From an uncultured Candidatus Poseidoniales archaeon (GTDB lineage: Archaea; Thermoplasmatota; Poseidoniia; Poseidoniales; Poseidoniaceae), in contig CAZGJD010000009.1 of NCBI GenBank assembly GCA_964526385.1, positions 8,358 to 72,357 of the forward strand: DNA of 64,000 nt. Direction: 5' to 3'. A model generated the notes under the pieces. The model was not told the DNA's origin and did no database searches. It saw only the letters and a program-made list of their open reading frames with translations. Position 1 is the first letter of the stretch. Each line of letters opens with the position of its first letter. The position numbers were made by a program, and so were the translations under genes. Shown here piece by piece: positions 9,905 through 58,446 of the stretch.

Positions 9905-10900
9905 TCATTCGAGTAATCTTGCTACAATGTCCGCCTTGGTTCCCGATGTTGCTACACCAGCTTCCTTCGCTTTTTCGACTAATTCGTCTTTCTTGAGTTT
10001 CATCAAATCTGCTTCGGACTCACCAGTTTCATTTGTTGTTTCTGAGACTTCTTCAACTTGCTCTGTCGCAACCTCCACAACTTCTTCCTCAGTCTTGTCA
10101 TCAGCAGATTCTTCTTTTTCAGAAATAGATTCCATTGCCTCTGCAGCAGCTAGCAAGTTGCTCTGATCTTCTTCTTCCATTGCATTTTCAAGAGCCGCAG
10201 CTTTTCTTGCTTTGAGTTCTGCTTCTTGCTTTTCTTCTTCTGCATGAATTTCATCCAATGTAGGCCCTTTATCAGTTACAACACCGGATTGTAATAGTTG
10301 GCTCTTTCGAATGACAACATTCTTACAAGGATAGATTGGCTTGATAGCGTTTCTAATTTCTGTTTCAAGATCACCATTTAACATGGATTCTTGGACTTTT
10401 GAGTAATTTGATTTTGATGAAAAACCTCGAATAATTTCGGCAGTTTTTGATCTAATTGCTTGCTTAACAGATGTTTGACATCTTCTTTCAGTAATAATCA
10501 ATGGTTTCATCCTGATTAGATAACCGTCTGTTGAAACTACATCTACCACGTCATCGATTTTACCCCTGTATCGGCGGATTTGTCTTCTTGTGTGGTCTGA
10601 TTGGTGAGAATGGCCAACAAATGTTGTTAGTGCATCTTGACCAACAGTTTCAGTAACTTTGAATCTTAAAATTACGTGCATCTTAGTGAAATCACCGCTA
10701 AATTCTTGTTGGGTCATTTCGTAAACTCTACCGATAATTTGTTCGTCGGTTTCTCCGAGAGTCTCTCCGATTCTCTTGAAATTCCAAGGATGTCTTGGTG
10801 CACGGATGGTAAACCATCTTTTATTCTTCCACTTATCTCTCTGCTTTCGTGCTGCTGCACGTGCCTTTGCACTCATCTTCTTGGCTGCCATTAGAATCAC
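9905..10900 (-). CDS. rps3ae: Ribosomal protein S3Ae (eS1) with a long acidic C-terminal extension ending in a SAP-like motif
   Basis: The core KWKNKRWFTIRAPRHPWNFKRIGETLG...HVILRFKV is typical of S3Ae. The protein is 331 aa, and by my recollection the family is usually about 200 aa. Confidence 0.85.
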   Translation of the reverse strand: MILMAAKKMSAKARAAARKQRDKWKNKRWFTIRAPRHPWNFKRIGETLGETDEQIIGRVYEMTQQEFSGDFTKMHVILRFKVTETVGQDALTTFVGHSHQSDHTRRQIRRYRGKIDDVVDVVSTDGYLIRMKPLIITERRCQTSVKQAIRSKTAEIIRGFSSKSNYSKVQESMLNGDLETEIRNAIKPIYPCKNVVIRKSQLLQSGVVTDKGPTLDEIHAEEEKQEAELKARKAAALENAMEEEDQSNLLAAAEAMESISEKEESADDKTEEEVVEVATEQVEEVSETTNETGESEADLMKLKKDELVEKAKEAGVATSGTKADIVARLLE

Positions 10901-20005: not shown

Positions 20006-20827
20006 ATGGATGTAGATGACCTCTTGTCAGTGTCGCCTAAACTATTGGCTCAAGCAATTCTACACCAAAGAGAACGCTTGATGGAACAGATTCCAAAGGA
20101 ATTGGAGGCAAGCACATCTGATCTCCAAAAATCCGAACCGTTGGCAAAGGCAGCCAGAATTGAAAGGGACAAAATTAATTCCAAAGTCAGTAAGTTGAAA
20201 TCTGAACGAGACACCTCCCAACAAAAGGCCAAAGTTTTATTTGAGAATTCTAATAAGATATACAACGAATTGTTAGATTCAGGTGGAATAAAAAATCCTA
20301 ACCCAAAATGGGCTAGAGACAAATTGGAAGCGAATCTAAAGGCTATCGAAGATAAGTTGCAGACAAGTGCTGGAAATCATAAGACAGAAGAGAAATACAT
20401 CAATGAAATGAAGAATCTTGTAAAAGAACACGAAGAGTGGGTCGAAGCAAATGCATCTTCTCAGCCAAAATTACTCGAAATGAGAGACGCAAGAAAAGAA
20501 GCCAAAAAATTACTCGACATTGCGCAAAAAGCACATGAAGCCATGGTTGAATTAGCTGGTGAAAATGATGAGAAGCATGAACAATTCATGACGTGGGAAA
20601 AAGTTCGTAGGGACAGCCTCTCCAAAACGAGGAAACTAAATGACATCATGAAGTTCTCAGAAAAATCATTGTCATATTGGAATCAAAAAATTGAAGATGA
20701 TAAATTTGAACCCTTACTACAAAATAGCGTAAATGTGAAATTAGGAAAGATGTCTTCCTTTGCAATTTCAAGGGCCAAAAAATTGGCTGAAGAAAAATCG
20801 TCTGTACGTGGTGGTGAGGAAGAATGA
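20006..20827 (+). CDS. Archaeal coiled-coil protein, paralog B (COG1340-like)
   Basis: 273 aa of charged heptad-rich sequence (ARIERDKINSKVSKLKSERDTSQQKAKVL...). Its stop overlaps the start of the next gene by 4 nt. Confidence 0.7.
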   Translation: MDVDDLLSVSPKLLAQAILHQRERLMEQIPKELEASTSDLQKSEPLAKAARIERDKINSKVSKLKSERDTSQQKAKVLFENSNKIYNELLDSGGIKNPNPKWARDKLEANLKAIEDKLQTSAGNHKTEEKYINEMKNLVKEHEEWVEANASSQPKLLEMRDARKEAKKLLDIAQKAHEAMVELAGENDEKHEQFMTWEKVRRDSLSKTRKLNDIMKFSEKSLSYWNQKIEDDKFEPLLQNSVNVKLGKMSSFAISRAKKLAEEKSSVRGGEEE

Positions 20828-22893
20828 GCGATTTCTGTGAAATCACTGGTATGTCTATAAACGATGCGAATAAGTTTGAGTTTATTCACTCAAAAATGAT
20901 CGAAGAGTTTAGTCCCAAAGAAATTGATGAGAAATATCTCGAAAAACTTGAAAATGAAATCTCAACTTCAATAAAGCGAATTCTTCCACATAAAAGTGAT
21001 TCAAAACAGAGAGAGAGTTTAACAAATCACCTATCGAGAACGTTAGGTAAAAAATTCAAATCTTCAGATGTCAAATCATTCGGTTCTTCCGTGACTGGCC
21101 TTAATATCAAAGGCGGAGACCTAGACCTTTGTTTTGTAATACCTGGTGCAAACCAGAAAAGTACAATTCAAAACATGGCTAAGGTCTTGAGGGGGCAAGG
21201 AATGGAAAACGTTCAACCTATTACTAATGCCATAGTCCCTATACTAAAATTCAAAGACCCAAGAAGTGGCATACATACTGATATTTCCGTTAACAATACT
21301 TTAGCACTGCACAATACGGAATTAATCAAAAGATATTCTAAAATTGACCGGAAGGTAAGCGATTTCATTCGATTGGTAAAATATTGGTCATTCCACAGAA
21401 ATATTTCTAATTCGTTTGAAGGCACTTTTTCATCATATGCTTGGACGATTCTCGCATTGAATTATCTTATTTCAGAGGGAGTAGTCCCTAATTTACAAGA
21501 TACCGAAGAAAAAATGTTGATTGAAATAAATGGAAATGAATTTGATATATCGATGGATAATCCTGAAACTATCAAACTATCAAGAGATATACCATTGTCA
21601 AAAATGATTTGTGGTTTCTTCGAGTTCTACTCGAACTGGGATTGGTCTAGTGATGTGGTTTCTATCAGAAACGGAGGGAAATTGGGTAGGGAAGAAGTCT
21701 CGTGGGATAATGAAGATCCGACTTCAATAGACTTGCTTAACCTTGGGAAATCTGATGCAAAAACTGGCAAGCACCACTTACCAATTCAAGACCCATTTGA
21801 CATTAATCACGACCTTTCAAAAGTATTAACTGCACAAGGCGAATTACAAATTCTAAATGAAATTCTCAGAGCAAGAGTGGAAATTGGAAACGGATTGAAT
21901 TGGTCAAAACTATGCGAAACTGTAGAACCTGAAAGGCTAGCAGACTTAGAACCTGAAGATTTGTTCCATGACCTGAGAAATTTGCCAATCAAGGATGTTG
22001 AAAATAAGAGAACTAAAATTCAAGGAGAAATTAATGCTCTTGAAACTAAAATCAAAGCATTTGAAGAGGAGAAATCTGTTTCTATTAGATTAGCAAACGC
22101 AATGAAGGGAATAATCGAGGAGACATCAGATATCCGTTCAGAACACAAGAGCATACACATAGGTCTTAAAGAAAGAAGTAAAGAAATTAGGGACCTAAAA
22201 AAGGAGAGAGACTTAATTAATTCAAACATTGTCATCCCACTGAAATACATTGAAGAGCAGTTAGCCAAAGTATACAAGCGATTAACAAATGAATTGAATG
22301 TAAGATATATTCCTAGTTTGGACAAAGAAATTAGTGATTTCTCATGGTTTTTTGAGTTACAAGAAATGCACAAAAAGGCGAAAGATGCTGAAAACTTACA
22401 CAACAAATATGTCGAATTATCAAAGCAACAGCATGAAGATATAAAGAAGCTAGAATTGTTCGAAACAAAGCATGATGAAGTTACAACAAAACTGCTCGCA
22501 GAAGAACCATTATTGAAAGATTTGAAGTTGGGTAGAAACGGTGCTAAGAGTTATGACAAGAGAGTATATAACATCAATAGAGCAATCCAAAATGGTCGCT
22601 CAGAATTTCAAAAACTAAGAAGAGAAATTGGTAGGTTGGACGCCTGGTTGAGAATTTCTAAGGGAGGAGGAAAATCAAACAAAGGTAGAAGTAGAAAAGA
22701 TTCGAATAGAGGGGAAAAGGTAACTTCAGGCCCCGTCACGCTTGGAGACCTATCCGACTTACTTGCTCAGGCTGGTCAATCTTCATCAACAAAGAAAACC
22801 AAGAAAATAAGTTCAAAGAAAGCCGGTATGAAAAAATTGGGTAACTTTTCGGCTCACAGAGGCACAAGAGGATCGTATAACAGGAAAGAATGA
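20824..22893 (+). CDS. Cid1/TUTase/non-canonical poly(A) polymerase-like nucleotidyltransferase (Pol-beta NTase + PAP-associated domain) fused to a C-terminal coiled-coil module and basic tail
   Basis: FGSSVTGLNIKGGDLDLCF (hG[GS]...DxD), PILKFKDPRSGIHTDISVNN (third Asp), LIKRYSKIDRKVSDFIRLVKYWSFHRNI, GTFSSYAWTILALNYL...VPNLQ, GFFEFYSNWDWSSDVVSIRNG, and IQDPFDINHDLSKV. Residues ~385-640 are coiled coil like paralogs A-C. The Lys/Arg/Gly/Ser-rich tail covers residues ~640-689. Confidence 0.8.
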   Translation: MSDFCEITGMSINDANKFEFIHSKMIEEFSPKEIDEKYLEKLENEISTSIKRILPHKSDSKQRESLTNHLSRTLGKKFKSSDVKSFGSSVTGLNIKGGDLDLCFVIPGANQKSTIQNMAKVLRGQGMENVQPITNAIVPILKFKDPRSGIHTDISVNNTLALHNTELIKRYSKIDRKVSDFIRLVKYWSFHRNISNSFEGTFSSYAWTILALNYLISEGVVPNLQDTEEKMLIEINGNEFDISMDNPETIKLSRDIPLSKMICGFFEFYSNWDWSSDVVSIRNGGKLGREEVSWDNEDPTSIDLLNLGKSDAKTGKHHLPIQDPFDINHDLSKVLTAQGELQILNEILRARVEIGNGLNWSKLCETVEPERLADLEPEDLFHDLRNLPIKDVENKRTKIQGEINALETKIKAFEEEKSVSIRLANAMKGIIEETSDIRSEHKSIHIGLKERSKEIRDLKKERDLINSNIVIPLKYIEEQLAKVYKRLTNELNVRYIPSLDKEISDFSWFFELQEMHKKAKDAENLHNKYVELSKQQHEDIKKLELFETKHDEVTTKLLAEEPLLKDLKLGRNGAKSYDKRVYNINRAIQNGRSEFQKLRREIGRLDAWLRISKGGGKSNKGRSRKDSNRGEKVTSGPVTLGDLSDLLAQAGQSSSTKKTKKISSKKAGMKKLGNFSAHRGTRGSYNRKE

Positions 22894-42643: not shown

Positions 42644-43993
42644 ATGACAGATTTCAGCCATTTTTCTGAAGAAAATATCCAGCGAGAAATAGAGTACTCA
42701 TCGCTTAGATCAGACATTATTGAATGGCGTCCATCTAAAAACCACTGTTACGAATTAATCGTACCAAAGACGGTTTACCCACCGAGAGAAGACACAGATA
42801 TGATCGCAAAAAAAATTATTTCAAGAGGACCAGTCAGCGGTTTAAAATTCTTAGAAATAGGTTCAGGAACTGGAGCATTGAGCATATTGGCATGTTCAAT
42901 GGGATGGGAAGTTTATTGCTGTGATATCAACCCATTTGCCGTAGCTGCAACAAAAGGTAATATTTTGGCAAATGGATTCAAAGGTTCTGTTAAAGAAGGT
43001 GGTATTGGCCCAGAAAAATTTCCCTTCTCAGAAAAATTCGACTTGATTATCTGGAATTTACCATACATACGAGAATTCAGTGAAGGAGGTTTGGGACCAC
43101 TTGAAGATGCTTCTCTAATAGACAATGACAATCTAGGATTAGACGTAAGATTGGTCAATAGTATAATTAGTAATCATTTGCTTACAAATACAGGACATGT
43201 TTGGATTTTGTGCAATGAATTAAATGTTAAAAAATCATATAAATTGTCTCACAGAATTGTCGGAAATTTAACATTTGAAGATGGTGAGTGTATTGCCTTA
43301 GTTAATTTATGGCAATCAAAGCATTACGAAAATAAGCTATTCTTGGATAAGACCAAATCGACGAATGACATCATGTTATCTTTCGATAACAATTACAAAC
43401 ATATCTACAGCCCTAAGCAAACAAATGGTAGAGGAAGACATAATAGAAAATGGGAGTCTATTAATCGTTCATTTGCTGGTTCATGGGACATATCCGAGCA
43501 CAAAAATGTACCTCCTGGCTTGTTGCAACTTGCTGCTGCAAAAGCAGTCTTAGCCACTATCAATTATCCTGAAATTAGTGTGAAATGGCCGAATGACATA
43601 ATGTTCAAAAAAAGAAAATTAGGTGGGATATTGATAGAATCAATTTCAAATTCCGATTCGACAAAAGTTGTACTTGGAATCGGCATTAACTTAGTTTCAG
43701 ACGACATCCAACGTGATTTCACCTATTCATCCTTATCTGAAATATCTGACACCAATATTCATGAATTGAGCCTCAATCTGAGCAAGAACCTTGCAAGTAT
43801 ATTTGAAAAACGAAGACATTTGCCAGACTTCGATTTTGAATCTTTACTTCCAGAGATGAAATCGGCAATCAGAGATTATGGCACACCAGTTTTCAAAGAT
43901 ATAGAATATCCAAATTTCGGCCTTTCTAAGGATGGCAAATTGAAAATCGGTTCATTGGAAATCGATGAGATTGAAGAGATAAATTGGGTTTAA
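42644..43993 (+). CDS. birA: Fusion protein: N-terminal HemK/Mtq2-like SAM methyltransferase + C-terminal biotin-protein ligase (BirA catalytic domain)
   Basis: N-terminal half: VYPPREDTDMI, LEIGSGTGALSI (SAM motif I), IIWNLPYI (NPPY-type motif IV). C-terminal half: QTNGRGRHNRKWES (GRGRxGRxW) and VKWPNDIMFKKRKLGGILIES. Confidence 0.8.
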   Translation: MTDFSHFSEENIQREIEYSSLRSDIIEWRPSKNHCYELIVPKTVYPPREDTDMIAKKIISRGPVSGLKFLEIGSGTGALSILACSMGWEVYCCDINPFAVAATKGNILANGFKGSVKEGGIGPEKFPFSEKFDLIIWNLPYIREFSEGGLGPLEDASLIDNDNLGLDVRLVNSIISNHLLTNTGHVWILCNELNVKKSYKLSHRIVGNLTFEDGECIALVNLWQSKHYENKLFLDKTKSTNDIMLSFDNNYKHIYSPKQTNGRGRHNRKWESINRSFAGSWDISEHKNVPPGLLQLAAAKAVLATINYPEISVKWPNDIMFKKRKLGGILIESISNSDSTKVVLGIGINLVSDDIQRDFTYSSLSEISDTNIHELSLNLSKNLASIFEKRRHLPDFDFESLLPEMKSAIRDYGTPVFKDIEYPNFGLSKDGKLKIGSLEIDEIEEINWV

Positions 43994-47380: not shown

Positions 47381-47532
47381 AGATTCCCCTCAATCTTATT
47401 CGTCATATGGTTTGTCATTTCCCGACTGTATGAATAATTGACAAAAATGTAACACTGCATCCAAAATTGTGGAAAATAACAAGCAACGATTATAGGCGAA
47501 ATGACGGTCGGATTAACTAAGTGGGATTAGCC

Positions 47533-48324
47533 ATGCGTACGCAGAAGGTTTTCGTCCGAAGTTTGGTATCCCTAATTCTAATTTCTCTAATGCTCGTTCC
47601 CGGCCTTGGAAACGCTTACCCGAGTGGCATTGGCGGCGAGGAAGTCTGGGCGGGTGGAGACATAGACGATGTAGCCAAGGAAGGTTGTTTGTGTCACGCC
47701 CCTGAACCCTCCAACGAGGTAATGATTATTCTGGACGATGTACCATTCACTTGGGCAGCTGGGGCAACCTACGACATGAGATTGGAGATTATTGGTGGGC
47801 CCGAATCATCGAGCGGAGGCTTTTCCGCAAGAGTCAGTGCAGGAGAATTTTCTGGCGACGGCCAAGACTGGAACGGAGACAACATGGCAAGAACACATCA
47901 AAATGCCAACAGCAGGATTTACACAATCAGCTGGACTGCTCCAGAAACAGACTCTGGGATTGTCAACTTTTGGATAACCGGTAACGCAGTTAATGGGAAC
48001 GGCGCTCCTGACGGAGATTTGTGGAACCAACTTCAATTTAGCCTGTCTGAAAACAGTAGTGCAGAAGATAAGAGAGGAACAAAGACCCTAATCGCTGGCA
48101 GTGGAACTCCAGAAGCCCCCGAGAAATCATCCGGCATTATTGACATCTCGACCATGGGAGCAGGTTTCAGAGCACACTGGTTGGGACTGTTAGGATTTGG
48201 AGCGGTCATTGCTGTAATCATATTTTGCGGATTAGTACTAAGATACGGTTTCTCAACATCTTACAAAGGTCGAAGCAATTTACTGAGACTAAGATATAAG
48301 GTCAACAGAAGAGGTGATCAGTAA
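47533..48324 (+). CDS. Exported beta-rich protein with a C-terminal TM anchor; first gene of the Rieske/cyt b operon
   Basis: ATG 47533 gives MRTQKVFVRSLVSLILISLMLVPGLGNA (signal-like). It contains EGCLCHAPEP and a C-terminal helix WLGLLGFGAVIAVIIFCGLVL. Function unknown. Confidence 0.6.
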   Translation: MRTQKVFVRSLVSLILISLMLVPGLGNAYPSGIGGEEVWAGGDIDDVAKEGCLCHAPEPSNEVMIILDDVPFTWAAGATYDMRLEIIGGPESSSGGFSARVSAGEFSGDGQDWNGDNMARTHQNANSRIYTISWTAPETDSGIVNFWITGNAVNGNGAPDGDLWNQLQFSLSENSSAEDKRGTKTLIAGSGTPEAPEKSSGIIDISTMGAGFRAHWLGLLGFGAVIAVIIFCGLVLRYGFSTSYKGRSNLLRLRYKVNRRGDQ

Positions 48325-48776
48325 TGGCTAAGGATACAATCACCCAACTATTGGAGAAGGTAGCTTCGGGCAAAGTTAGCGTTAAAGACGCAAGAACTGC
48401 GCTCCAAGATGCATCGCTCACTGAAGAGCAAATGGATGCAGCAATAAATCACGGGGTTTTCAACCCCGCAGAACCAGGCACGGTAATCTCCGCCAGCTTA
48501 GCACCTTCAGGCAACTCAGCATTGACATTGTTTTTCTTTGCATGGGGAATTTTCTGGACGCTATACTGGTTCAGCACCATGCTCTACGGCTTACTGAACG
48601 GTAGTGCCTGGGACCAGCAACAACTTTCCTACCATCTTGCTATGGGATTAACGACCCTTCTGATGATGGGTATAGTATACATGAAGTGGGTACTGCCTGA
48701 CAAAATCATTGTCAAGCACTCTCAAAACAAATACATACCTGAGCATCAAAAGGACTGGAGAGAATATAACTGGTGA
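48324..48776 (+). CDS. Small membrane protein (operon member)
   Basis: 150 aa with 2-3 hydrophobic helices. Its start overlaps the preceding stop, and its stop overlaps the Rieske gene start by 4 nt. Confidence 0.5.
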   Translation: MAKDTITQLLEKVASGKVSVKDARTALQDASLTEEQMDAAINHGVFNPAEPGTVISASLAPSGNSALTLFFFAWGIFWTLYWFSTMLYGLLNGSAWDQQQLSYHLAMGLTTLLMMGIVYMKWVLPDKIIVKHSQNKYIPEHQKDWREYNW

Positions 48777-49630
48777 TATCAATGGACGGCATGAGACTCA
48801 GACCGGCACCCTCAGAAAGTGGAAACTCTGCAAATGCTCTTGGCGATATGCAAGTCAATCGTAGACAATTCATGAGGTATGGATTTAATGCATCTGGTGG
48901 TGTTTTAGCGGCAAGCCTCGGAGCATTAGGATTCGCTTCGATTCTATTACCTCCATCCGGAGACAGTGGAGGTGATTCAGCCGTAAAATTCTGGGCAAAA
49001 GGACGTGAAGATGAAGCATGGTACGGAGCTATGCACCTACAACCCATGACAAAGTCTGCTTTTGAAGCGGAAGCCGCCAAATCGAATGTCGGGATTTCGG
49101 GCGCTCAAGGTGTTTGGAACGGACTTCCTGTGATAGTCAATTACGTACCACATTCCACAAACTCGTCTAAGCCAGTGGCAGATAATCTACCTCGATTTCA
49201 AGAAATGGCAGGATATGATATCGCTAAGAATTATGTCGGCCATGCCACAGAATTCTTACTCTCAAACCCTGATGTCTTTGACCCCAATAACAACTTAGTA
49301 ATGTCATTTGGAAGGTGCACTCACCTGTGTTGCATTCCAGGTTGGCAACTCGTTTCAAACTCTTTTACTGACGACAATTGGACACCCGGTGGTGGCGATG
49401 ATGGAGGAACTAAGATGTTCTGCATCTGTCACTCCAGCAGATTTGACCCAACCGCAATCGAGGTCAACAGAAACGCCAACAGATCGAACGGACAGATGTT
49501 CGAATACCTAGGAATTAGAAGAGCAGGAGGTCCAGCTCCTGTCGGTTTGCCTATCATTCCAATCATAATGAACGGAGACATTATCGAGGCGTCTACAGAA
49601 TATACGGGCTGGTTGACCTATTGCGATTGA
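48773..49630 (+). CDS. Rieske [2Fe-2S] protein with a Tat-like signal
   Basis: NRRQFMRYGFNASGGVLAAS (twin-Arg), box I CTHLCC and box II CICHSSRF. Confidence 0.85.
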   Translation: MISMDGMRLRPAPSESGNSANALGDMQVNRRQFMRYGFNASGGVLAASLGALGFASILLPPSGDSGGDSAVKFWAKGREDEAWYGAMHLQPMTKSAFEAEAAKSNVGISGAQGVWNGLPVIVNYVPHSTNSSKPVADNLPRFQEMAGYDIAKNYVGHATEFLLSNPDVFDPNNNLVMSFGRCTHLCCIPGWQLVSNSFTDDNWTPGGGDDGGTKMFCICHSSRFDPTAIEVNRNANRSNGQMFEYLGIRRAGGPAPVGLPIIPIIMNGDIIEASTEYTGWLTYCD

Positions 49631-49640
49631 GGTGAATAAT

Positions 49641-50507
49641 ATGAGCACGATATTTTGGGTTCTTTGGTTTTTCATAGCCTTCATAATTGTATTAATCGCA
49701 TTCACATTGAGGAAAGAGAATGAGGATGTCCCTCGAAGAGAGATTCTAAGAGCGGTCGAAACATCTGGAAAAATGGGCTTGGCTGAAAGAACCTTCCTGT
49801 GGGTGTTTTCGTTCCTTGATACAAGATTCCGAATTCAAGATTACTGGAATATGAGCAAAGGTGCTTATTACAACATGCACCGACAAATGCCACTAACTCA
49901 CGCAGAGAAATACAAACTGAGAATCATATGGTATTGGTATCCTTTGTATTGCTTGGGAGGAATTTCATTCCTATCGTTCATTATCCTCGTAATAACAGGT
50001 ACCGTTCTAGGAATTTACTACGTTCCCGGTGGAGAGGGAGACCCTTCGCCTGCATACGCAAGCATGGAATACATAATGACTCAACTTCCATTCGGTTACA
50101 TCATAAGAGCAGTCCACCACTGGGGAACTCATTTCATGGTAGCATCTGTTTTCCTTCACATGTGTAGAGTGTACTTCACTGGAGCATACAGAAACCCACG
50201 TGAACTAAACTGGTTAATCGGAGTTGCACTAATGGCATTAACAATCGTGTTCGGTTACTCAGGTTATCTACTACCTTGGGACACATTAGCATACGGAGCT
50301 GCAGTTATCGGAATTAACCTTGCAAACGCAACACCACTGATTGGAAAGTACATCGCTACTCTTCTATTCTCCGGCTCATCACTTTCCCCAAGAACCGTGA
50401 CCAGAATGTATTTCATTCACGTTTTCATTCTACCAGTGATAGTTACCACACTGATCATAATACACCTGTTCATAGTGTGGGTTCAGGGAATTGCGGAGCC
50501 GCATTGA
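49641..50507 (+). CDS. Cytochrome b (N-terminal four-helix, b6-like)
   Basis: HHWGTHFMVASVFLH gives H-x13-H and HVFILPVIVTTLIIIH gives H-x14-H. Also YRNPRELNWLIGV and GYLLPWD. GAGGTG precedes the ATG. Confidence 0.9.
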   Translation: MSTIFWVLWFFIAFIIVLIAFTLRKENEDVPRREILRAVETSGKMGLAERTFLWVFSFLDTRFRIQDYWNMSKGAYYNMHRQMPLTHAEKYKLRIIWYWYPLYCLGGISFLSFIILVITGTVLGIYYVPGGEGDPSPAYASMEYIMTQLPFGYIIRAVHHWGTHFMVASVFLHMCRVYFTGAYRNPRELNWLIGVALMALTIVFGYSGYLLPWDTLAYGAAVIGINLANATPLIGKYIATLLFSGSSLSPRTVTRMYFIHVFILPVIVTTLIIIHLFIVWVQGIAEPH

Positions 50508-50522
50508 TAGGAGGTCAAAGGT

Positions 50523-53327
50523 ATGGGATTAATGGAAAATTTAGGTGCTGTAGCATCAACATACATGGAAGAAAAGGAAAAACTCCAAACCGCCGAAGAG
50601 AGAAGAAAAAGAACAAGGTCTGGACACGGTTTTTGGCCTCATGAAGTCCTACGTGATTCACTAATCTTTGGTTTCATGATAGCAGTATTGCTATTCTATG
50701 CTTGGCTTATCCCTCCTCCACTGCACAGCGCCGCAGACCCATTCGCTCAAGCAGGATTCGTGTTCCCTGATTGGTATGTACTATTCTCATACGGATACCT
50801 ACGATGGGGAGAATATTTGCCTCAGTTTGATGTTCCACTCGGACCTGTTGGTGACTTCTTTGGTCAACCATCATTCCCGTGGAACGCAGCATGGTGGGGG
50901 GCATTCCTAACTGGAATCCCAGTTGGAATTCTAGCACTTCCACCGTTCTTAGGAGGTCGTGAAAAGAGACCTGTTGAAGACCCGTGGTTCGCAAGTGCAG
51001 GTGTCGTTTATCTCGCACACATTTGGTTTATCTCCGTATTTTCTATCAATATCTTTTTGGAGTTGTACGGAAAAAATCGAAGTGATTACTGTAAGTTGGA
51101 TAGTCATGGAGATTTACTGTGTGGTACGAGAGACCCATGGATTGCTGATTTGTTCAATATGATACCTTGGGTTCTCACGGGAATACTGTTGTGGATAATG
51201 ATATATTTCATCGCTAAATGGTTATTCAATAATGCCTGGGGTGCAAGATTTACTCCCGCTCACGGCAAAAGCTTGGTAATTGGAGCATTCATAGTTGCTA
51301 CTGCAGCGAGCGTTGTAACTTACCCAGTTTATGACAACGGTTTCTGGGAAGCCAAAGGATTACTGACAATTGCTGACTATGATGAACTCGAAGAAATGAG
51401 GTCTCAACCAACAGATATTCAAGTTCATGAGGTTAATGAGTTCATGACATTACAAGGATTTGAAGGAGACATAGTACCAGCTGCCGCTTGGATGGATTGG
51501 AATATATACCAACCGACTAGATACTACATGATCGATTTCGCAGATAATAATGGACATCAGGATCTAGACTCAGGAGTAAATGGTGCTGCCGGAATCGATA
51601 ACTATACTGCTGAAGAAACTATTTGGGCATCTGGTACTTTCTCAATTTCCGATCAATACTGGCCTGATGATATTGATTTCAAGACTGTTCCAGTTGATGC
51701 TACCTGCTCAACTCGTGCAAGTGAAGTTATCATTGATGGAGGATTATCCACTTCAAGGATGATTCAATCAAGCTTAGTCATAACCGAGAGAGATAGTGGC
51801 AAAACAGTAATTGACACTGATTGTACATCTGGTGAAACCGGTGTTGAACTTGGAGCAGGATTATATGATTATGAATTCAGAGTCAATTCAGTAGATCAAC
51901 TTGCTGCGAATGACACAGTTACTGTTGAAACCGCATTCACAATCAAGGCATTCCAGCCTCTGCTACTGTATGGAGAGAATGCTGGTAACGGACTCGCAGG
52001 AACTACTGTTGACCTATCCAACTCCCTAAATATGGAGCTTGAAGGAGAACACATGAGTGTTACAGAAAATCCAACCTACCATGCCAATCCGAAGGCTCTA
52101 GACGCTAAATTGACCTATGCTATGTTTGTACCGTGTGTGACATTAGGAGCTATTGTATTCGTATTACTCAGAAATATGGCTAGGGGATACGAGTTTGAAA
52201 TGAACAAATGTTACGGCTGTGACCTTTGTGATGATGCTTGTCCAGTCCGATTGTTCAATGCAGGTGACAAACTGAATATCATTTACAACTCATGGAACAA
52301 CGAAGATGATGGTGTTCCACTTTATTCATGTTTGACATGTACTGCATGTACCAATGCATGTCCACAATTGGTTGATTACGATTCATATGTTGATATTAGA
52401 AGAACACTGATTGTAGGTGGACCTACGGCAGAGATACCACACACAGTGTTACAAGCAGTTCTTGCAGCAGAAGCTGAAGAAGAAAGCGATGCTGACTTCG
52501 TAGCAGTGGAAGACTACCCAATCGATTCCAATGTTGGATACTACCCTGGATGCGTAGACTATCTAGATCAAGAAATGGTCTTCAGCCACCTCAATGAAGG
52601 GGAAATGAACCTTGGTGAAACTACTACTGCAGCCTTTACTCTGTTTGAAGAGATGGGTGCTGATGTATCATACCTTGGCAGAGACTTCCTCAAGTGCTGT
52701 GGCCACGACCAAAAGTGGCAAGGATTAGATGAAGTGTTTGAAAAGCTTAAGGCTTACAACCAGAAGAAAATCGAAGCCTCGGGAATTGATACTCTTGTAT
52801 CGTCATGTGCAGAGTGTTTCAGGACATTCGCAAGAGACTATGAACTAGAGGGCGTCAAAGTAATGCACACAACTGAGTTCCTAATCGAAAACGGATTCGA
52901 CATGAACATGAAGGCTGAAAATGACGTAACTGTGACCTACCACGACCCTTGTAGACTTGGAAGACAAATGGGGATCTATGAAGAACCAAGAGAACTGGTT
53001 GCAGGAGTCGAGGGAGTAGAACTTGTTGAAATGGAACATCATGGTGAAGACGCAATGTGTTGTGGAGTATCAAGCATGATGTCTTGTAATGAAAACGCAA
53101 GAGCATTGAGAATTTCAAGAATGGAAGAAATCAAGAATACTGGCGCTGACATGATGATTACATCTTGTCCTAAGTGTGTATCTCACTTCGAATGTCTCAA
53201 GTTTGAAGATGAAGAAAAATACGACATTGAAATTTTAGATGTAGTTTCCTTCTTAGCAAGACAAGTCGAAGCAAAGAAGTCACTAATTGATGAAACTTCT
53301 ACCGCCAATGTTGGCGTAGAAGCATGA
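50523..53327 (+). CDS. Fusion: cytochrome b C-terminal/subunit-IV-like domain + large extracytoplasmic insert + TM + 2x[4Fe-4S] ferredoxin + two CCG (HdrD/GlpC-like) domains
   Basis: WPHEVLRDSL and FPDWYVLFSYGYLR (a PEWY-type Qo motif). CYGCDLCDDACP and CLTCTACTNACP. CCG units are YYPGC...CCGHD...SSCAEC and YHDPC...MCCG...TSCPKC. GGAGGT precedes the ATG. Confidence 0.8.
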   Translation: MGLMENLGAVASTYMEEKEKLQTAEERRKRTRSGHGFWPHEVLRDSLIFGFMIAVLLFYAWLIPPPLHSAADPFAQAGFVFPDWYVLFSYGYLRWGEYLPQFDVPLGPVGDFFGQPSFPWNAAWWGAFLTGIPVGILALPPFLGGREKRPVEDPWFASAGVVYLAHIWFISVFSINIFLELYGKNRSDYCKLDSHGDLLCGTRDPWIADLFNMIPWVLTGILLWIMIYFIAKWLFNNAWGARFTPAHGKSLVIGAFIVATAASVVTYPVYDNGFWEAKGLLTIADYDELEEMRSQPTDIQVHEVNEFMTLQGFEGDIVPAAAWMDWNIYQPTRYYMIDFADNNGHQDLDSGVNGAAGIDNYTAEETIWASGTFSISDQYWPDDIDFKTVPVDATCSTRASEVIIDGGLSTSRMIQSSLVITERDSGKTVIDTDCTSGETGVELGAGLYDYEFRVNSVDQLAANDTVTVETAFTIKAFQPLLLYGENAGNGLAGTTVDLSNSLNMELEGEHMSVTENPTYHANPKALDAKLTYAMFVPCVTLGAIVFVLLRNMARGYEFEMNKCYGCDLCDDACPVRLFNAGDKLNIIYNSWNNEDDGVPLYSCLTCTACTNACPQLVDYDSYVDIRRTLIVGGPTAEIPHTVLQAVLAAEAEEESDADFVAVEDYPIDSNVGYYPGCVDYLDQEMVFSHLNEGEMNLGETTTAAFTLFEEMGADVSYLGRDFLKCCGHDQKWQGLDEVFEKLKAYNQKKIEASGIDTLVSSCAECFRTFARDYELEGVKVMHTTEFLIENGFDMNMKAENDVTVTYHDPCRLGRQMGIYEEPRELVAGVEGVELVEMEHHGEDAMCCGVSSMMSCNENARALRISRMEEIKNTGADMMITSCPKCVSHFECLKFEDEEKYDIEILDVVSFLARQVEAKKSLIDETSTANVGVEA

Positions 53328-53382: not shown

Positions 53383-54162
53383 ATGGATTATGACACTCTG
53401 ACTGTTCTTGAGTTGAAAACCATCTGCAAGGACAGAGGTTTGAAAGTAAGTGGAAACAAGTCTGAAATTGTAATCAGACTGATGGAGGATGACGAGTCAA
53501 AGTTACCAAAACCCGTAGAAATTAATTCCGGAACTGTAACCCATAATCAGCCTCAAGTGATATTCGTCACACAACATAATTCTACACTTCCTGCAATATT
53601 GGGTGTATTCATTATCCTATATGGAATGTTTAGAGCTGGATATTCTTTCCTTTGGATTGATTATTCATCAATTCACGCCGTTATTGGGGTGGGAATTGGA
53701 TTAGGATTCGTGTTTGCTGGAATAATTGTTGTACAAGGGTACAAAGTGGGACTAAAGATAGCCGTTGGAATATTATTGTTATCTGGTGCTTTATCCTTGT
53801 TTTTCATTGATGAAGTGACTCCATTATCAATCGGATTTGGCACTGGTGATGATGCATGTGGCCTATTTTCAGTGATGTTGTCGACATTTTGTTTACTAAT
53901 AGTTGGAACACCATTATTTTTTGATACCGAGAATTACTTCAAAGAAGGACGACCGAATTATTTAGGCGCCATAGCAGACATGACCGATGGTCTTTCACCT
54001 TTACCAATTTTTACTGGAAGTAGTATGGTCACGAAAAATAAAACAGAAGTGAAGGTAGTAACAAACTGTACGCATTGTGATACAAAACTAAAGGTTCCAG
54101 AGGGTTATAGTGGAAAGGCAAAATGCCCATCTTGTAATCAATCTTTCAAAGTAAATTTGTGA
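53383..54162 (+). CDS. Membrane protein with an N-terminal SAP-like motif and a C-terminal zinc ribbon
   Basis: LTVLELKTICKDRGLKVSGNKSEIVIRLMEDD (SAP pattern), ~4 hydrophobic helices, and C-terminal CTHCDTKLKVPEGYSGKAKCPSC. Confidence 0.65.
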   Translation: MDYDTLTVLELKTICKDRGLKVSGNKSEIVIRLMEDDESKLPKPVEINSGTVTHNQPQVIFVTQHNSTLPAILGVFIILYGMFRAGYSFLWIDYSSIHAVIGVGIGLGFVFAGIIVVQGYKVGLKIAVGILLLSGALSLFFIDEVTPLSIGFGTGDDACGLFSVMLSTFCLLIVGTPLFFDTENYFKEGRPNYLGAIADMTDGLSPLPIFTGSSMVTKNKTEVKVVTNCTHCDTKLKVPEGYSGKAKCPSCNQSFKVNL

Positions 54163-54236: not shown

Positions 54237-54518
54237 TCACATCGATTCAGACTCGTCATCCATTCCTCTAATTTCGTAATTTGATGGGAATAGAGCCACA
54301 ATAACTCCTGCAATTAGAAATCCAAGACCTAGGGCAAAGTCATGTGAAACAAACAAAAACTCCAGAGCGAACACCACAAGCAAAAGCCCTCCAATGTTGG
54401 AGACCCAAACCAATGTCTTGAATGTTGATAATGACACTCCTGTAGTCTTTGCACCTCTTACAGGGCCAAACTCTCCACCAAATCTCTGTGCTCCTTCATG
54501 TTCAGGTTGTTTACTCAT
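54237..54518 (-). CDS. Small membrane protein
   Basis: 93 aa with two hydrophobic helices (LVWVSNIGGLLLVVFALEFLFV and GLGFLIAGVIVALF). Confidence 0.45.
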   Translation of the reverse strand: MSKQPEHEGAQRFGGEFGPVRGAKTTGVSLSTFKTLVWVSNIGGLLLVVFALEFLFVSHDFALGLGFLIAGVIVALFPSNYEIRGMDDESESM

Positions 54519-54522
54519 ATTA

Positions 54523-54855
54523 TCACCTATCTATCATTGTAATCGCATCAGTAGGACACGCAAGCACACATAACCTACACCCAGTGCAAGCATCTCGAAT
54601 AATTCTAGCTTTTCGATTACTAGGGACATTTATCAATGTTGATGCTACATCTTTGTGATACAATTCAATTGCGTCATCATCACAAACGATGGTACATTGG
54701 TCACAGCCTATGCAAAGATTTTCTGTAACCCAAGCTACTGTCCCTTCTCCTCCCTTAATCTGTGATCTTCTCTCACCTTTCTGGCGAGCAAGAGCGATGG
54801 CGATACGCTCGGCTTCTTTCGCCCTGCGTTTTGCTAAGTCCTCAGTAGAGGTCAT
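54523..54855 (-). CDS. 2x[4Fe-4S] ferredoxin-domain protein with a basic N-terminal extension
   Basis: CIGCDQCTIVCDDDAI and CTGCRLCVLACPTDAI. Confidence 0.75.
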   Translation of the reverse strand: MTSTEDLAKRRAKEAERIAIALARQKGERRSQIKGGEGTVAWVTENLCIGCDQCTIVCDDDAIELYHKDVASTLINVPSNRKARIIRDACTGCRLCVLACPTDAITMIDR

Positions 54856-55519: not shown

Positions 55520-56737
55520 TTATTCTGCAAAATTGTCCAATTGTGATTGAGATTCTGCACCCATAGCGAGCATAGATAACTCTGAAACCAATGCATGCCA
55601 GGTCCTTGCATGTTCACCGAATGAATCTCCTACCTCACTGTAGGACCTAAAGACTGCAGAGGGTGAGTTCAAATTTTCCATTTCACCCTTTTTTGGATTA
55701 ATTCTGTAAAACCAGGAAGCAGCTTCCCCATCTACTAGGTAAACAACTGGTTCTACAGTAGCTCCTTCACTTGTTTTCATGGTTGTAGGAACTCCTTCTT
55801 GAATTAAGAAGTTTTCAACATCAACACCTCCCTTTGAATACATCAATTTCTTGAATTTACGATTTGACAAATTTAACAATTGGTCACCACTTGTAACAGC
55901 CATTATCCCTAAACCATAGGTACCTCTATCGTTTTTAATGAAAGCGACGGGTTGTCTATCTATTCCCAGAGATTCATATTTTGCTGCAATTTTTGCCAAG
56001 AATTCATCTACCTCAGTGGCAAGCATCAATCGACAAGTTTCCTTTTCCAAACACTTGTCTTCGCTGACGAACCAATCTGCCAAAAGGTGCCAGGAATCTA
56101 TTCCAATTATCTCTGAAATCTCTTCTACATATTTTTGCAAATGTTGGTAATGTTCAGACTTGCGTCTCCTTTGCCAACCCATGTGAGGAGGTGGTGAAAC
56201 ATTGCTCGTACTCAACCCATCTACCATACCTTCAGTCAAGTCATTGTTTAGCATAACTAGGTCTGGTTTTGAACCATTAACGTGAATTTTATCATCTATT
56301 ATCGACACCTGATCTAGTATCAAAGGACCAGAAATTCCGTCTAGGGAACCGTGCCCTTCTAAATCGGGAGAGCCCACTGTACAACGAAATCCTGCCTTTT
56401 TGACAAGTCGCTTGATTGTTGCTACATTCTCAACATAGCCCGCATTACGAGTGTGAGATTCAGGGTAGAGATGAACCCAAGCGCAATTTGGATGCTTTCT
56501 AATTATGTGGTCCTTGAGAAGTTTTGAAAGAACTTCTTCATCACCTTCTGAGACGTTATTAAAACCAGCCGGAAAGTGATTTGCGTCCACTACTGCGACT
56601 TTCCACCCGCAGTCCCTAATGTCGACACTACCATAAATTGGAATTGGAACTTCTGCCCTCTTTTTATTCATCCATTCAGTGATTTCTTCCCGCTTATCTT
56701 CAAGCGATTTTGTAATTTCGTGTAGTATGGAAATCAC
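55520..56737 (-). CDS. gshA: Glutamate-cysteine ligase-like (the small 'T. ferrooxidans-type' GshA family; from memory)
   Basis: VPIPIYGSVDIRDCGWKVAVVDANHFPAGFNNV matches my recollection of the N-terminal signature of that family. ~400 aa. Needs HMM confirmation. Confidence 0.45.
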   Translation of the reverse strand: MISILHEITKSLEDKREEITEWMNKKRAEVPIPIYGSVDIRDCGWKVAVVDANHFPAGFNNVSEGDEEVLSKLLKDHIIRKHPNCAWVHLYPESHTRNAGYVENVATIKRLVKKAGFRCTVGSPDLEGHGSLDGISGPLILDQVSIIDDKIHVNGSKPDLVMLNNDLTEGMVDGLSTSNVSPPPHMGWQRRRKSEHYQHLQKYVEEISEIIGIDSWHLLADWFVSEDKCLEKETCRLMLATEVDEFLAKIAAKYESLGIDRQPVAFIKNDRGTYGLGIMAVTSGDQLLNLSNRKFKKLMYSKGGVDVENFLIQEGVPTTMKTSEGATVEPVVYLVDGEAASWFYRINPKKGEMENLNSPSAVFRSYSEVGDSFGEHARTWHALVSELSMLAMGAESQSQLDNFAE

Positions 56738-58446
56738 ATCACCTCCTCGATTAATGATTTTGCATCACCGCTCTTTTTGGATCTTCCACCATCGATAATA
56801 TGCATCGATTCGAATAGAGCCATACCTAAACAAATTTCTGGCTGTTTAATTAACTCTCGTTCTAAATCAGGATACCTTTTTGCATAATCTGGTACGAGGG
56901 GGTTTAGGTCATCTAGGATTTTTTCTATCAATCTTGGAGAGGTTGCCCTACCTGCAGGTAATTTTGGCCTGTATACTATTTCTTCGGGTAGATTGGTCAA
57001 ACTTGCGGCTTTTCTCAATGCTGCTTTTTCATCGATCCCTTCTGTATATCTCCATTTCATTGGAAGACGGTTTGATTCATTCCTGTGACGACTACCTAAA
57101 AATGGCACCCTGACTTCTAACCCATGAGCCATTGAGTGTCTATCTACTAACCTTAGTTGGAAATTCGATAATTGGCCGTGGTCAAGTTCGAACTGCAGGA
57201 AATCCTTGAGTGATTTCGTGTGATTTTCCGGTGTTAAGTCTTCAGTCCACCATTTATCTTCTTTGAGATTATCCAAATTGAAATTCATGTTGTCCAAACG
57301 ATTTCTAACCAATCTGCTATGAGCTTCTAGGTCCCTATATCTTGGATAGCCCGCATGTAATTCATCGGCTCCTTGACCACAAAGTCCCACTGTAACAGAT
57401 TGGGACATTTTTTCAAATAGTGGCTGGAAAAATAGCACTGTTACATCAAAATCTTCCCCATGCCAAGATAAATCAGGTAGCCTGTTATTGAATGAATCTT
57501 CATCTAGCACATATTGGTGATGTTCTAAATCCAAACTAGATGCTACAAGTTCAGCAGCCTTCCAATCAGGATTATCCTCGCTTTCCGCAACTGTCCAGCA
57601 AGCAGGAACCGGTTGATTTGCTATATCTGCAGCATCCCTTGCTACTGCGCAAACCAAACTTGAATCCAAACCACCAGAAAGCACGATGCCTAGCGGGACA
57701 TCTGACATCAAACGGTCACTCACACTCAATGTGAAACTCTCAAGCAAACCTTGCGGATCGTCCCAAAATTCCGCAGGTTCAACCCTTTGAGTCTCGAATC
57801 GACATGAGCTGACCAACTTGGGATGTCCATCAATAAATTCCCAAACCTCAACAGTTCCCGGCCTGACTTGGTAAACTCCATTGAATAAAGATGATGCATC
57901 TAGAGGATATTCCCAGGCGATTCTTGCTTTTATCGCTTCTAAATCCATTTCTGAATGATATTCTTCATGAGAGCGCAGTGCTTTTACCTCACTTGAAAAC
58001 AATAATGTATCGTTCACTATTGTTCGAAAAAGTGGTTTGATACCCATTGGGTCTCTTGCTAGTATCAGTTGACCATTTGACCATAGTGCAAAAGCGAACA
58101 TTCCATCAAGTTTGGAAATCCATTTTGAATGCTCTTTCGCAGAACCATAACCAGTGTGAAGAGACAAAATAACTTCACTATCTCCGTTAGTGCTGTAATT
58201 ATACTGTCTACTTTTCAGATCTAAATAATTGTATATTTCACCATTTACGACGCATACCTTGCCATCGCCAAATAATGGTTGGGGAGACCCTGATACGTCG
58301 ACTATTGCTAATCTTGCATGTGCCAAGCCACAGATTTCGTCGGCGAAAATTCCGCTTCCATCAGGACCTCTGTGTTGCATCAAATCAATCATACGTGAAA
58401 GTACCGACTTGTCGGGATTACCAAGCATACCGCCTATCCCGCACAT
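56734..58446 (-). CDS. Asparagine synthase (glutamine-hydrolysing)-family amidotransferase
   Basis: MCGIGG (Ntn Cys-2) and the PP-loop SGGLDSS. 570 aa. Confidence 0.8.
   Translation of the reverse strand: MCGIGGMLGNPDKSVLSRMIDLMQHRGPDGSGIFADEICGLAHARLAIVDVSGSPQPLFGDGKVCVVNGEIYNYLDLKSRQYNYSTNGDSEVILSLHTGYGSAKEHSKWISKLDGMFAFALWSNGQLILARDPMGIKPLFRTIVNDTLLFSSEVKALRSHEEYHSEMDLEAIKARIAWEYPLDASSLFNGVYQVRPGTVEVWEFIDGHPKLVSSCRFETQRVEPAEFWDDPQGLLESFTLSVSDRLMSDVPLGIVLSGGLDSSLVCAVARDAADIANQPVPACWTVAESEDNPDWKAAELVASSLDLEHHQYVLDEDSFNNRLPDLSWHGEDFDVTVLFFQPLFEKMSQSVTVGLCGQGADELHAGYPRYRDLEAHSRLVRNRLDNMNFNLDNLKEDKWWTEDLTPENHTKSLKDFLQFELDHGQLSNFQLRLVDRHSMAHGLEVRVPFLGSRHRNESNRLPMKWRYTEGIDEKAALRKAASLTNLPEEIVYRPKLPAGRATSPRLIEKILDDLNPLVPDYAKRYPDLERELIKQPEICLGMALFESMHIIDGGRSKKSGDAKSLIEEVM

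Follow-up and report, generated by a model that had tools for sequence, protein, structure and literature searches.

QmoC, in which an HdrE/NarI-type cytochrome is fused to an HdrC-like domain and which works with HdrA-like flavoproteins, and the anammox bc complexes that carry cytoplasmic NAD(P) modules are functional analogues of the system described here. In the PDWF-FeS clade, a few bacterial long cytochromes b with no Rieske gene in the cluster are combined with 4Fe-4S and MvhD domains (Magnetospirillum, Turneriella) or joined to a ferredoxin and a flavin oxidoreductase (Alicycliphilus) (PMC4122944). Dibrova et al. recognized a subfamily H of large cytochrome b-domain proteins of unknown function, whose relation to fusions of the PDWF-FeS type is our guess, and they derived the bc complexes from a proposed ancestor in which a protruding Fe-S dehydrogenase was anchored by a cytochrome b of four helices (PMC5600118). 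In the EtfD/EMO proteins, a cytoplasmic donor delivers electrons to heme and quinone through clusters arranged in the order membrane, cubanes, non-cubanes (PMC13083937; bioRxiv 10.64898/2026.08.18.745454). Here we analyze a 64-kb stretch of DNA from a Poseidoniales (Marine Group II) archaeon, referred to at its full length as the window, in which a single uninterrupted open reading frame (ORF) of 934 amino acids (aa) at 50523-53327 on the plus strand encodes a cytochrome b subunit IV-like domain fused to an HdrC/HdrB-like Fe-S and double-CCG module.

This cytochrome b/Fe-S fusion, pointed out in an initial annotation of the window, is real. It is the subunit IV component of the only recognizable Rieske/cytochrome b (complex III-type) enzyme of its operon, and it probably provides complex III with a hard-wired electron port on the n side. 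The overall interpretation given in the initial annotation is supported, and the direct electron path that it drew to a cytoplasmic thiol/disulfide or organic-acid reaction is hypothetical in both substrate and direction.

Results

Architecture and topology of the fusion protein

The fusion protein is divided as follows, with segment identities given as means relative to the window protein over 21 homologues.

50523..51068, plus strand: subunit IV-like core, residues 1 to 182, helices E, F and G, with the PDWY Qo motif at 50766-50777; 81% mean identity
51069..52109, plus strand: Poseidoniales-specific insertion, residues 183 to 529, comprising an outside loop, the fourth and fifth transmembrane segments and the ectodomain 270-529; not in the short fusions described below
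52110..52178, plus strand: return transmembrane helix (outside to inside), residues 530 to 552; aligns with the fourth transmembrane helix of the short fusions
52179..52412, plus strand: HdrC-like domain, residues 553 to 630, with two CX2CX2CX3CP motifs (two cubane [4Fe-4S] clusters); 93% mean identity
52527..53267, plus strand: HdrB-like double-CCG domain, residues 669 to 915, PF02754 in two stretches; 83% mean identity

All motifs quoted in the initial annotation were located in the protein, namely, WPHEVLRD at residues 38 to 45, PDWY at 82 to 85, the ferredoxin motifs CYGCDLCDDACP at 563 to 574 and CLTCTACTNACP at 603 to 614, and the CCG stretches PGC...CCGHD...CAEC at 675 to 765 and DPC...CCG...CPKC at 808 to 885. 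The domain reading was upheld, with Pfam, NCBIfam, PDB profiles, topology, AlphaFold combined with Foldseek, and homologues all in agreement. Hydropathy indicated six transmembrane segments (46-64, 122-144, 161-179, 213-238, 251-269, and 530-548). The positive-inside pattern placed the N terminus in the cytoplasm, with 8 lysine and arginine residues among residues 1 to 45 and REKRP following the second segment, while the acidic segment 270-529 (45 aspartate and glutamate versus 12 lysine and arginine residues) was predicted outside and residues beyond 549 inside. On the basis of this charge pattern, the Fe-S/CCG module lies in the cytoplasm, which is where its cofactors need to be, and the insert lies on the extracytoplasmic side, the orientation that had been proposed. 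The only N-x-S/T sequons of the protein, at positions 185, 360, and 463, all fall within predicted outside segments, and an invariant cysteine pair (Cys190/Cys200) sits in the predicted outside loop.

The ectodomain is variable (43% mean identity, with insertions and deletions), beta-rich, and well modeled. Foldseek returned only weak matches to GOLD-domain-like beta-sandwiches for it, and the isolated insert had no Pfam match. For the whole chain, an AlphaFold run with 22 close homologues reached a predicted local distance difference test score (pLDDT) of 57.9, and a second run with a 72-sequence alignment that included short and split relatives reached a pLDDT of 75.4 and a predicted template modeling score of 0.53.

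The N-terminal part is subunit IV-like

The N-terminal part had been read as the C-terminal domain of cytochrome b, the family of PF00032. This model left the window protein unmatched even at E≤10, as it did the isolated N-terminal domain. We uphold the assignment to subunit IV on the basis of the profile matches of the N-terminal domain and of intermediate homologues that are PF00032 positive. A profile of the N-terminal domain, built from eight Marine Group II sequences and compared with the whole PDB, matched only b6f subunit IV (E 0.012 to 0.14), and the match to PetD is in register, with residues 31 to 95 aligned to PetD 25 to 90 and WP.[DE].L, ADPFA, and P[DE]WY..LR shared. The intermediates are shorter fusions from other archaeal metagenome-assembled genomes (MAGs) and metagenomes, 543 to 789 aa long and 37 to 43% identical. 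In what follows, P numbers denote related fusion proteins and L numbers related genome or metagenome loci, P0125 being the fusion of L082. The N-terminal domain of the window protein aligned with P0294 at E 1e-25 and with P0125 at E 9e-23, and five of the short fusions scored above the PF00032 gathering cut-off of 20.7 bits (P0128, 48.7; P0129, 44.4; P0132, 38.1; P0294, 33.9; and P0127, 32.6 bits).

A profile of the short fusions matched the C-terminal halves of long cytochromes b in the PDB at E 2.5e-12 and b6f subunit IV at E 3e-10, spanning helices E to H of the long cytochromes b (7q21_B residues 246-422), and through its Fe-S part it matched HdrB at E 4e-10 and HdrC at E 1.4e-9 (5odc_C), in addition to EtfD (see below). 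The PDWY motif is invariant in 22 Marine Group II sequences, the set that was also used for cysteine invariance, and is present in the short fusions as well. This variant of the motif has been tied to menaquinone and low-potential systems (Kao & Hunte, PMC4122944).

The Fe-S module keeps all its cluster ligands

The Pfam 4Fe-4S dicluster domain lies at residues 559 to 615 (Fer4_8/9/10) and starts about 12 residues past the membrane, at the conserved GYE[FY]EMNKCYGC, while PF02754 matches the two CCG stretches at E 4e-25, so that both parts of the module are as the initial annotation had described them. Of the 18 cluster-ligand cysteines, 17 are invariant, the remaining one, Cys563, being a glycine in 1 of 22 sequences. 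All ten CCG ligands are among the invariant ones (Cys677, Cys725, Cys726, Cys762, and Cys765 in the first motif and Cys810, Cys846, Cys847, Cys882, and Cys885 in the second), and the HdrC-like domain is the most conserved segment of the protein. A vestigial module devoid of cofactors was considered and ruled out, since all ligand cysteines are conserved in the part of the protein that is itself the most conserved.

Among solved structures, EtfD of Mycobacterium smegmatis is nearest in sequence (9ojn, E 2e-25 over residues 599-928; 5e-41 with the family profile of the short fusions), and HdrB comes next in the PDB search at E 6e-4. EtfD is also the closest by fold, Foldseek on the model giving 9.5e-15 for EtfD and template modeling scores of 0.73 for LutA and 0.60 to 0.65 for HdrB. 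All NCBIfam matches were below threshold, the best being the C-terminal part of TfrB with 119 bits against a cut-off of 385, then LdhH (84/800), GlpC (40/278), and GlcF (35/333 bits); a dicluster/pyridine-nucleotide-disulfide protein, TmcB, and DsrK also matched below threshold, and HdrB was far below its cut-off. No flavin adenine dinucleotide-dependent dehydrogenase was found within about 10 kb of the fusion in the window, and among the related loci GlcD-like genes occur in L083 only, on the opposite strand.

The nearest unfused relatives of the C-terminal module, 36 to 43% identical and with source names that include ANME-2 and Methanosarcinales, are proteins with HdrC plus HdrB in a single chain. 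Downstream of them, HdrA-like, Fer4, and MvhD genes occur in about two-thirds of the 65 loci, many of these loci being short contigs; in some module relatives, the fusion partner is MvhD or a GltD-like NAD(P)-binding domain. The module belongs to the same superfamily as EtfD/EMO, HdrDE, GlpC/GlcF/Lut, and TfrB, with the same order of cofactors counted from the membrane (cubanes, non-cubanes), but is a member of none of these families; from a reading of the motifs, we place it outside the EtfD/EMO family because both of its CCG motifs are complete.

The proximity to EtfD would be expected of an electron transfer flavoprotein (ETF):quinone oxidoreductase, that is, of a module that docks ETF and feeds electrons from beta-oxidation and amino acid catabolism into complex III. 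Marine Group II archaea are described as aerobic heterotrophs that degrade proteins and fatty acids (PMC6336850), which suits such an enzyme. However, part of the score advantage of EtfD arises because it is the only solved single-chain HdrC plus HdrB fusion, the degeneracy of the distal site that is typical of EtfD/EMO is not present, and the nearest unfused relatives adjoin HdrA/MvhD, not ETF. In addition, the related operons hold no etfAB, and no etfAB, hdrA, mvhD, or glcD-like gene was found by a family scan of the window that took in the majority of its ORFs of 120 aa or more, a few smaller ORFs excepted. We thus regard an ETF:quinone oxidoreductase as quite improbable.

The fusion is conserved across Poseidoniales

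At E≤1e-3, a search of a word-indexed protein set yielded 466 relatives. Almost all of the best 120 are full length (about 908 to 969 aa), at 60 to 86% identity, and they stem from JGI, ENA, NCBI, Logan, and Tara assemblies. In a scan of one genome per GTDB species, about 460 genomes had a relative, and locus and synteny counts throughout refer to the best 80 loci. All 80 are labeled Poseidoniales (Marine Group II), with a 1.5-Mb contig, single-cell genomes, and a MAG of Thalassarchaeaceae among them, and each matches nearly the whole protein, mostly from residues 1-920 to 1-934, with one stopping at residue 820. An exhaustive search of 1.8 billion representative proteins placed all Poseidoniales fusions in one 50% cluster and also brought out the short fusions.

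A trivial explanation would be that a petD-like and an hdrD-like gene were joined by a sequencing or assembly error, a check for which had been called for from the outset. The fusion is full length in many independent assemblies, the same open frame recurring in more than 120 protein clusters from them and in the best 80 of the approximately 460 genome loci, and independent fusions lacking the insert occur in other lineages, leaving the probability of an artefact negligible. Across these sequences, the fusion is the standard form in Poseidoniales, a statement that reaches beyond the gene of the window.

A complete operon of the Poseidoniales type, 72% identical, also occurs at L049 (NZEQ01000055.1), a contig labeled "Verrucomicrobiales bacterium"; this contig is probably a binning contaminant in its MAG.

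Short and split relatives define a family core

In the short fusions, the order is subunit IV (helices E to G, with PDWY), one helix, GYEYxLNxCYxC, dicluster domain, and two CCG motifs, so that the Poseidoniales proteins differ from them by one insertion (residues ~183-529) between helix G and the last helix. Cytochrome b6 lies immediately 5' of the short fusion in each case. The related loci have the following gene orders.

L082: Reeler-like protein, DUF7318 protein, Rieske protein, cytochrome b6 with a large ectodomain, fusion, polyferredoxin, small transmembrane protein
L083 and L086 (Thermoplasmata-type): cupredoxin, DUF7318 protein, Rieske protein, cytochrome b6, subunit IV plus dicluster domain, separate CCG protein, ferredoxin-like protein, small transmembrane protein
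L085 (MAG labeled Halobacteria): cytochrome c, DUF7318 protein, Rieske-like protein, cytochrome b, subunit IV plus dicluster domain, small protein; CCG nowhere
L081, L087 to L089, and L091: cytochrome b6, fusion, HdrA-like flavoprotein, Fer4 protein, MvhD/FlpD-like protein, small transmembrane protein
L092 to L096, L099, and L100: cytochrome b6, fusion, and one or two of HdrA-like, Fer4, and MvhD proteins at 25 to 33% identity

The cytochrome b6 genes of the family are 47 to 58% identical to that of the window, and WYWYPLYCLGG is kept in L081, L082, and L083, with WAWYPFYCLGG in L085 (for the metagenome loci, by tblastn only). Since split forms and a form without CCG (L085) exist, what stays constant in the family is that subunit IV carries a fused Fe-S domain on the inner face of a Rieske/b6 core. 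By gene content, an HdrB-like domain, a ferredoxin, and HdrA/MvhD proteins are variable additions to it.

The loci of the L081 type (L081 3007-6517), which come from soil and sediment metagenomes and in which the fusion is followed by HdrA-like, Fer4, and MvhD/FlpD-like genes, suggest a flavin-based bifurcation module joined to the Rieske/cytochrome b6 core in one membrane complex.

The fusion gene closes a Rieske/cytochrome b6 operon

The fusion gene is the last of five closely packed genes at 47521-53327, which are syntenic in 71 to 79 of the 80 loci. The four genes that precede it and two small downstream genes, which are convergent with the operon, are listed here.

47521..48324, plus strand: choice-of-anchor-V protein (NF041895, E 1e-23) with a signal peptide and a C-terminal transmembrane anchor; syntenic in 71/80 loci
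48324..48776, plus strand: 150-aa small membrane protein, probably DUF7318-like; syntenic in 72/80 loci
48773..49630, plus strand: Rieske iron-sulfur protein (TIGR01416, E 6e-8, below the cut-off) with a twin-arginine translocation (Tat) signal, NRRQF, at residues 29 to 33
49632..50507, plus strand: split cytochrome b6, helices A to D (PF00033, E 3e-43; best PDB match cytochrome b6, E 4e-44)
54237..54518, minus strand: 93-aa two-helix membrane protein, paired with the ferredoxin gene; syntenic in 63/80 loci
54523..54855, minus strand: 110-aa RnfB-like 2x[4Fe-4S] ferredoxin (Fer4_21; rnfB, E 5e-13, below the cut-off); syntenic in 61/80 loci

The initial annotation had taken the preceding gene to be a cytochrome b, and Pfam, NCBIfam, and PDB alignment identified it as a split cytochrome b6 with a Rieske gene before it. 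Its histidine pairs His162/His176 and His263/His278 have b6-type spacing, and all four align with those of cytochrome b6 in the PDB. Cys107, in YCLGG, aligns with b6 Cys35, the heme ci/cn site; YCLGG is at least 95% conserved and is kept in distant operons. Mean identity of the cytochrome b6 is 90% over 69 sequences. The Rieske cluster boxes CTHLCC (182-187) and CICHSS (217-222) are intact, the motifs being at least 95% conserved over 76 sequences, and Rieske homologues stand at the same position in L082 (E 1e-19) and L083 (E 3e-15). The adjacency of a Rieske gene and a di-heme cytochrome b gene, which marks a Rieske/cytochrome b complex, is syntenic in 75 to 79 of the 80 loci.

N-terminal extensions of the cytochrome b6 occur in two forms. 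The cytochrome b6 of the window has about 100 extra aa with one transmembrane helix (49632-49940, plus strand), and in the P0125 lineage (L082 898-3174) a Big_5-type ectodomain of about 500 aa precedes the cytochrome in the same polypeptide.

The operon encodes no CXXCH protein, so none of cytochrome c1, cytochrome f, or a di-heme cytochrome c was identified, and the first gene encodes the choice-of-anchor-V protein, which has no sequence relative in the PDB and carries the invariant DVAK.GCLCH, TH, FWI, and D.WNQ. Elsewhere, the first gene encodes a cupredoxin (L083, 5555-6202; L086, 4473-5117), a cytochrome c with CKTCH (L085, 4425-4934), or, upstream of P0125 in L082, a Reeler-like protein, and an anchor motif, RA[YH]W[LI]G[LV][LI]G, is common to the first-gene proteins of the window, L083, L085, and L086. 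The first gene thus looks like a swappable slot for the acceptor of the Rieske protein. From its position, the choice-of-anchor-V protein is a putative electron acceptor on the outer face, in the slot of cytochrome f or c1, and choice-of-anchor V is a candidate new redox domain, though one with no evident cofactor. At the second position, DUF7318 genes are found in L082, L083, L085, and L086; the 150-aa protein of the window resembles the L083 DUF7318 protein weakly (BLAST E 0.004), and both match one ORF of L096.

In L082 (E 1e-13) and L083 (E 2e-12), a homologue of the 110-aa ferredoxin is encoded in the same orientation as the fusion or CCG gene and immediately 3' of it, and a 242-aa Fer4 protein takes the corresponding position in L086. 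Its synteny makes the ferredoxin probably a cytoplasmic partner or subunit of the complex. An orphan RnfB has been noted in Marine Group II genomes (Tully 2019, PMC6336850), and the ferredoxin of the window is probably this protein. The transmembrane region of the 93-aa protein aligns with the small proteins that end the operons of L081, L082, L083, L085, and L086 (LE and P conserved), a likeness that BLAST alone misses; we tentatively consider these proteins homologous.

About 2 kb downstream of the fusion lies a glutamate-cysteine ligase gene, gshA (55520-56737, minus strand; TIGR02049, 299.9 bits against a cut-off of 293.9), which is syntenic in 57 of the 80 loci and overlaps by 4 bp a 570-aa ORF (56734-58446, minus strand) that reads as asparagine-synthase-like. 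The pair keeps its synteny with the complex III operon in most Poseidoniales loci and may make a gamma-glutamylcysteine-type thiol, perhaps amidated. On the other side, 6.5 kb upstream, a lipoate/biotin-ligase-family domain is fused to a methyltransferase domain (42644-43993, plus strand), and two LplA-type genes lie near the P0125 fusion (L082 9640-13686). This proximity may be a coincidence or may hint at a link to a lipoyl protein.

Direction of electron flow

Because the Fe-S chain begins so close to the membrane, we take it as a wire between heme bn/ci and a cytoplasmic partner. We favor electrons entering from the cytoplasm, to which we assign a probability of about 50%. A cytoplasmic donor, likely the RnfB-like ferredoxin and, in relatives, an HdrA/MvhD-type flavoprotein module, would pass electrons to the Fe-S module, and the chain would hand them to the inner-face heme bn/ci of cytochrome b6. 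Quinone would then be reduced at Qi jointly by one electron from the n side and one from Qo. The complex would thereby run the Q cycle as Mitchell first drew it, its n-side donor being built in.

Four considerations lead us to favor inward flow. First, the operon apparently encodes the only complex III of the lineage, being its only candidate according to the literature (PMC6336850), and its heme ci and Qi features are kept. Second, what the family has at its core is a plain dicluster domain, CCG being absent altogether from one form. Third, ferredoxin-like or HdrA/MvhD partners are co-encoded. Fourth, EtfD/EMO run the same chain inward. Heme cn has, in addition, been discussed as a possible n-side entry for electrons in b6f (PMC7908018). 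A more specific form of inward flow, in which complex III would itself contain a ferredoxin (or flavoprotein):quinone reductase and the HdrA-containing relatives would physically couple flavin and quinone bifurcation, is put forward as a tentative possibility.

Several points weigh against inward flow. As in catalytic HdrB, neither CCG motif has lost any of its five cysteines, while in EtfD/EMO the distal site is degenerate, so that a pure wire fits no better than a catalytic thiol/disulfide site. Among the unfused relatives, the closest lie in HdrA/MvhD clusters, in which electrons normally flow towards HdrB. The ferredoxin gene of Poseidoniales is on the opposite strand and is linked to the operon by synteny only, the presence of heme ci is deduced from a single cysteine, and helix E, the ef loop, and the dicluster domain are modeled with low confidence in the single chain.

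Two other functions would make direct use of the complete CCG motifs. In the first, the low-potential electron from Qo would run via bp and bn/ci into the Fe-S chain and reach a cytoplasmic disulfide or similar acceptor. Quinone recycling would be nil or partial, and the enzyme would be a quinol-driven disulfide reductase powered by the high-potential branch. Comparable schemes, with bifurcation towards the cytoplasm, have been proposed for the Rieske/cytochrome b complexes of anammox bacteria. The Hdr(CB)-type relatives encoded with HdrA and MvhD, with their flow towards HdrB, are consistent with this function, and so is gshA, which indicates that a low-molecular-weight thiol is made. On the other hand, an aerobic heterotroph with no other complex III candidate (PMC6336850) would have to supply a cytoplasmic acceptor in stoichiometric amounts for half of all quinol electrons, and the heme ci cysteine and the b6-type Qi region speak for retention of inner-face quinone reduction. 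Since L085 lacks CCG yet has the fused dicluster domain, disulfide chemistry cannot be the core function of the family. CoM-S-S-CoB is not expected as a substrate, since the host is described as an aerobic, non-methanogenic heterotroph (PMC6336850). Taken together, outward flow to a disulfide appears unlikely.

In the second, the HdrB-like site would oxidize a cytoplasmic dithiol and the electrons would pass to cytochrome b6 and quinone, the candidate substrates being a gamma-glutamylcysteine-like thiol, a protein-bound dihydrolipoyl group, and a DsrC/TusE-like protein. Sulfur-oxidizing Hdr-like systems use lipoate-binding proteins, and both gshA and the lipoate/biotin-ligase-family genes near the window locus and near P0125 would fit. 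These gene associations are loose, however, with differing strands and several genes in between, the operon has no visible lipoate-binding or DsrC-like gene, and the CCG-less form of L085 counts against this function as well. Such a thiol- or lipoyl-oxidizing dehydrogenase is, in our view, distinctly unlikely.

Other genes in the window

Directly 3' of the fusion gene, a multi-pass membrane protein with an N-terminal SAP domain and a C-terminal CxxC..CxxC is encoded at 53383-54162 (plus strand), and a C-terminal SAP domain is also found in ribosomal protein S3Ae at 9905-10900 (minus strand). A 689-aa protein encoded at 20824-22893 (plus strand) combines an MTPAP-like palm (E 5e-32) with a Cid1-family PAP-associated domain (E 3e-12) and, judging by these matches, is a eukaryote-type terminal nucleotidyltransferase in an archaeon.

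Discussion

In the surface ocean, Marine Group II archaea rank with the most abundant heterotrophs, and the locus would account for their orphan RnfB as part of one unusual enzyme (PMC6336850). Whether electrons enter the b6f complex from an inner-face donor via heme cn is an old unresolved question of photosynthesis, bound up with ferredoxin:plastoquinone reductase and cyclic electron flow (PMC7908018), and a lineage with an Fe-S wire fixed covalently on that face would be a natural test case. The architecture of the fusion resembles the bc-complex ancestor proposed by Dibrova et al., and the HdrA/MvhD-linked relatives would connect both known kinds of electron bifurcation.

Comparison with known systems

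The initial annotation took the fusion to be new. No description of a subunit IV-HdrD fusion was found in the literature searched, most subscription journals lying outside the search, and the subunit IV-HdrCB fusion is likewise undescribed in the reviews of Rieske/cytochrome b diversity and in the Marine Group II and Thermoplasmatota genome papers that were searched; this much of the claim stands. Fusions of cytochrome b to Fe-S domains as such are known from bacteria (PMC4122944). What is new is that familiar modules are covalently united within a complete Rieske/b6 operon and that this is the regular complex III of a globally abundant archaeal order.

With the b6f and Bacillus-type bc complexes, the Poseidoniales complex shares the spacing of a split b6, the cysteine in CxGG, a PxWY subunit IV with helices E to G, and a Tat-exported Rieske protein. 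Unlike in those complexes, the fourth helix leads into a cytoplasmic HdrC/HdrB module with four clusters, cytochrome f and c1 are missing, and, in Poseidoniales, two helices and an ectodomain of about 260 aa are added.

HdrDE and EtfD/EMO have in common with the fusion that one chain carries an HdrC-like and then an HdrB-like domain after a membrane anchor of b-type cytochrome. Their anchor is a NarI/HdrE-type five-helix cytochrome, whereas here it is a Rieske/cytochrome b6 core with a Q cycle. The fusion further differs from EtfD/EMO in that both CCG motifs are complete, with Glu764 at the position of EtfD His583 as read from the motif. QmoC resembles the operons of the L081 type, in which HdrA-like and MvhD-like genes lie 3' of the fusion, but it has no Rieske protein, no Qo site, and no HdrB-like domain.

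The PDWF-FeS proteins are alike in that they join cytoplasmic redox domains to a cytochrome b that has its Qo motif. By their description they are set apart as bacterial long cytochromes b with PDWF, for which no CCG or HdrB domain has been reported, whereas the fusion of the window consists of a split subunit IV with PDWY, stands inside a complete Rieske/b6 operon, and carries an HdrC plus HdrB-like module.

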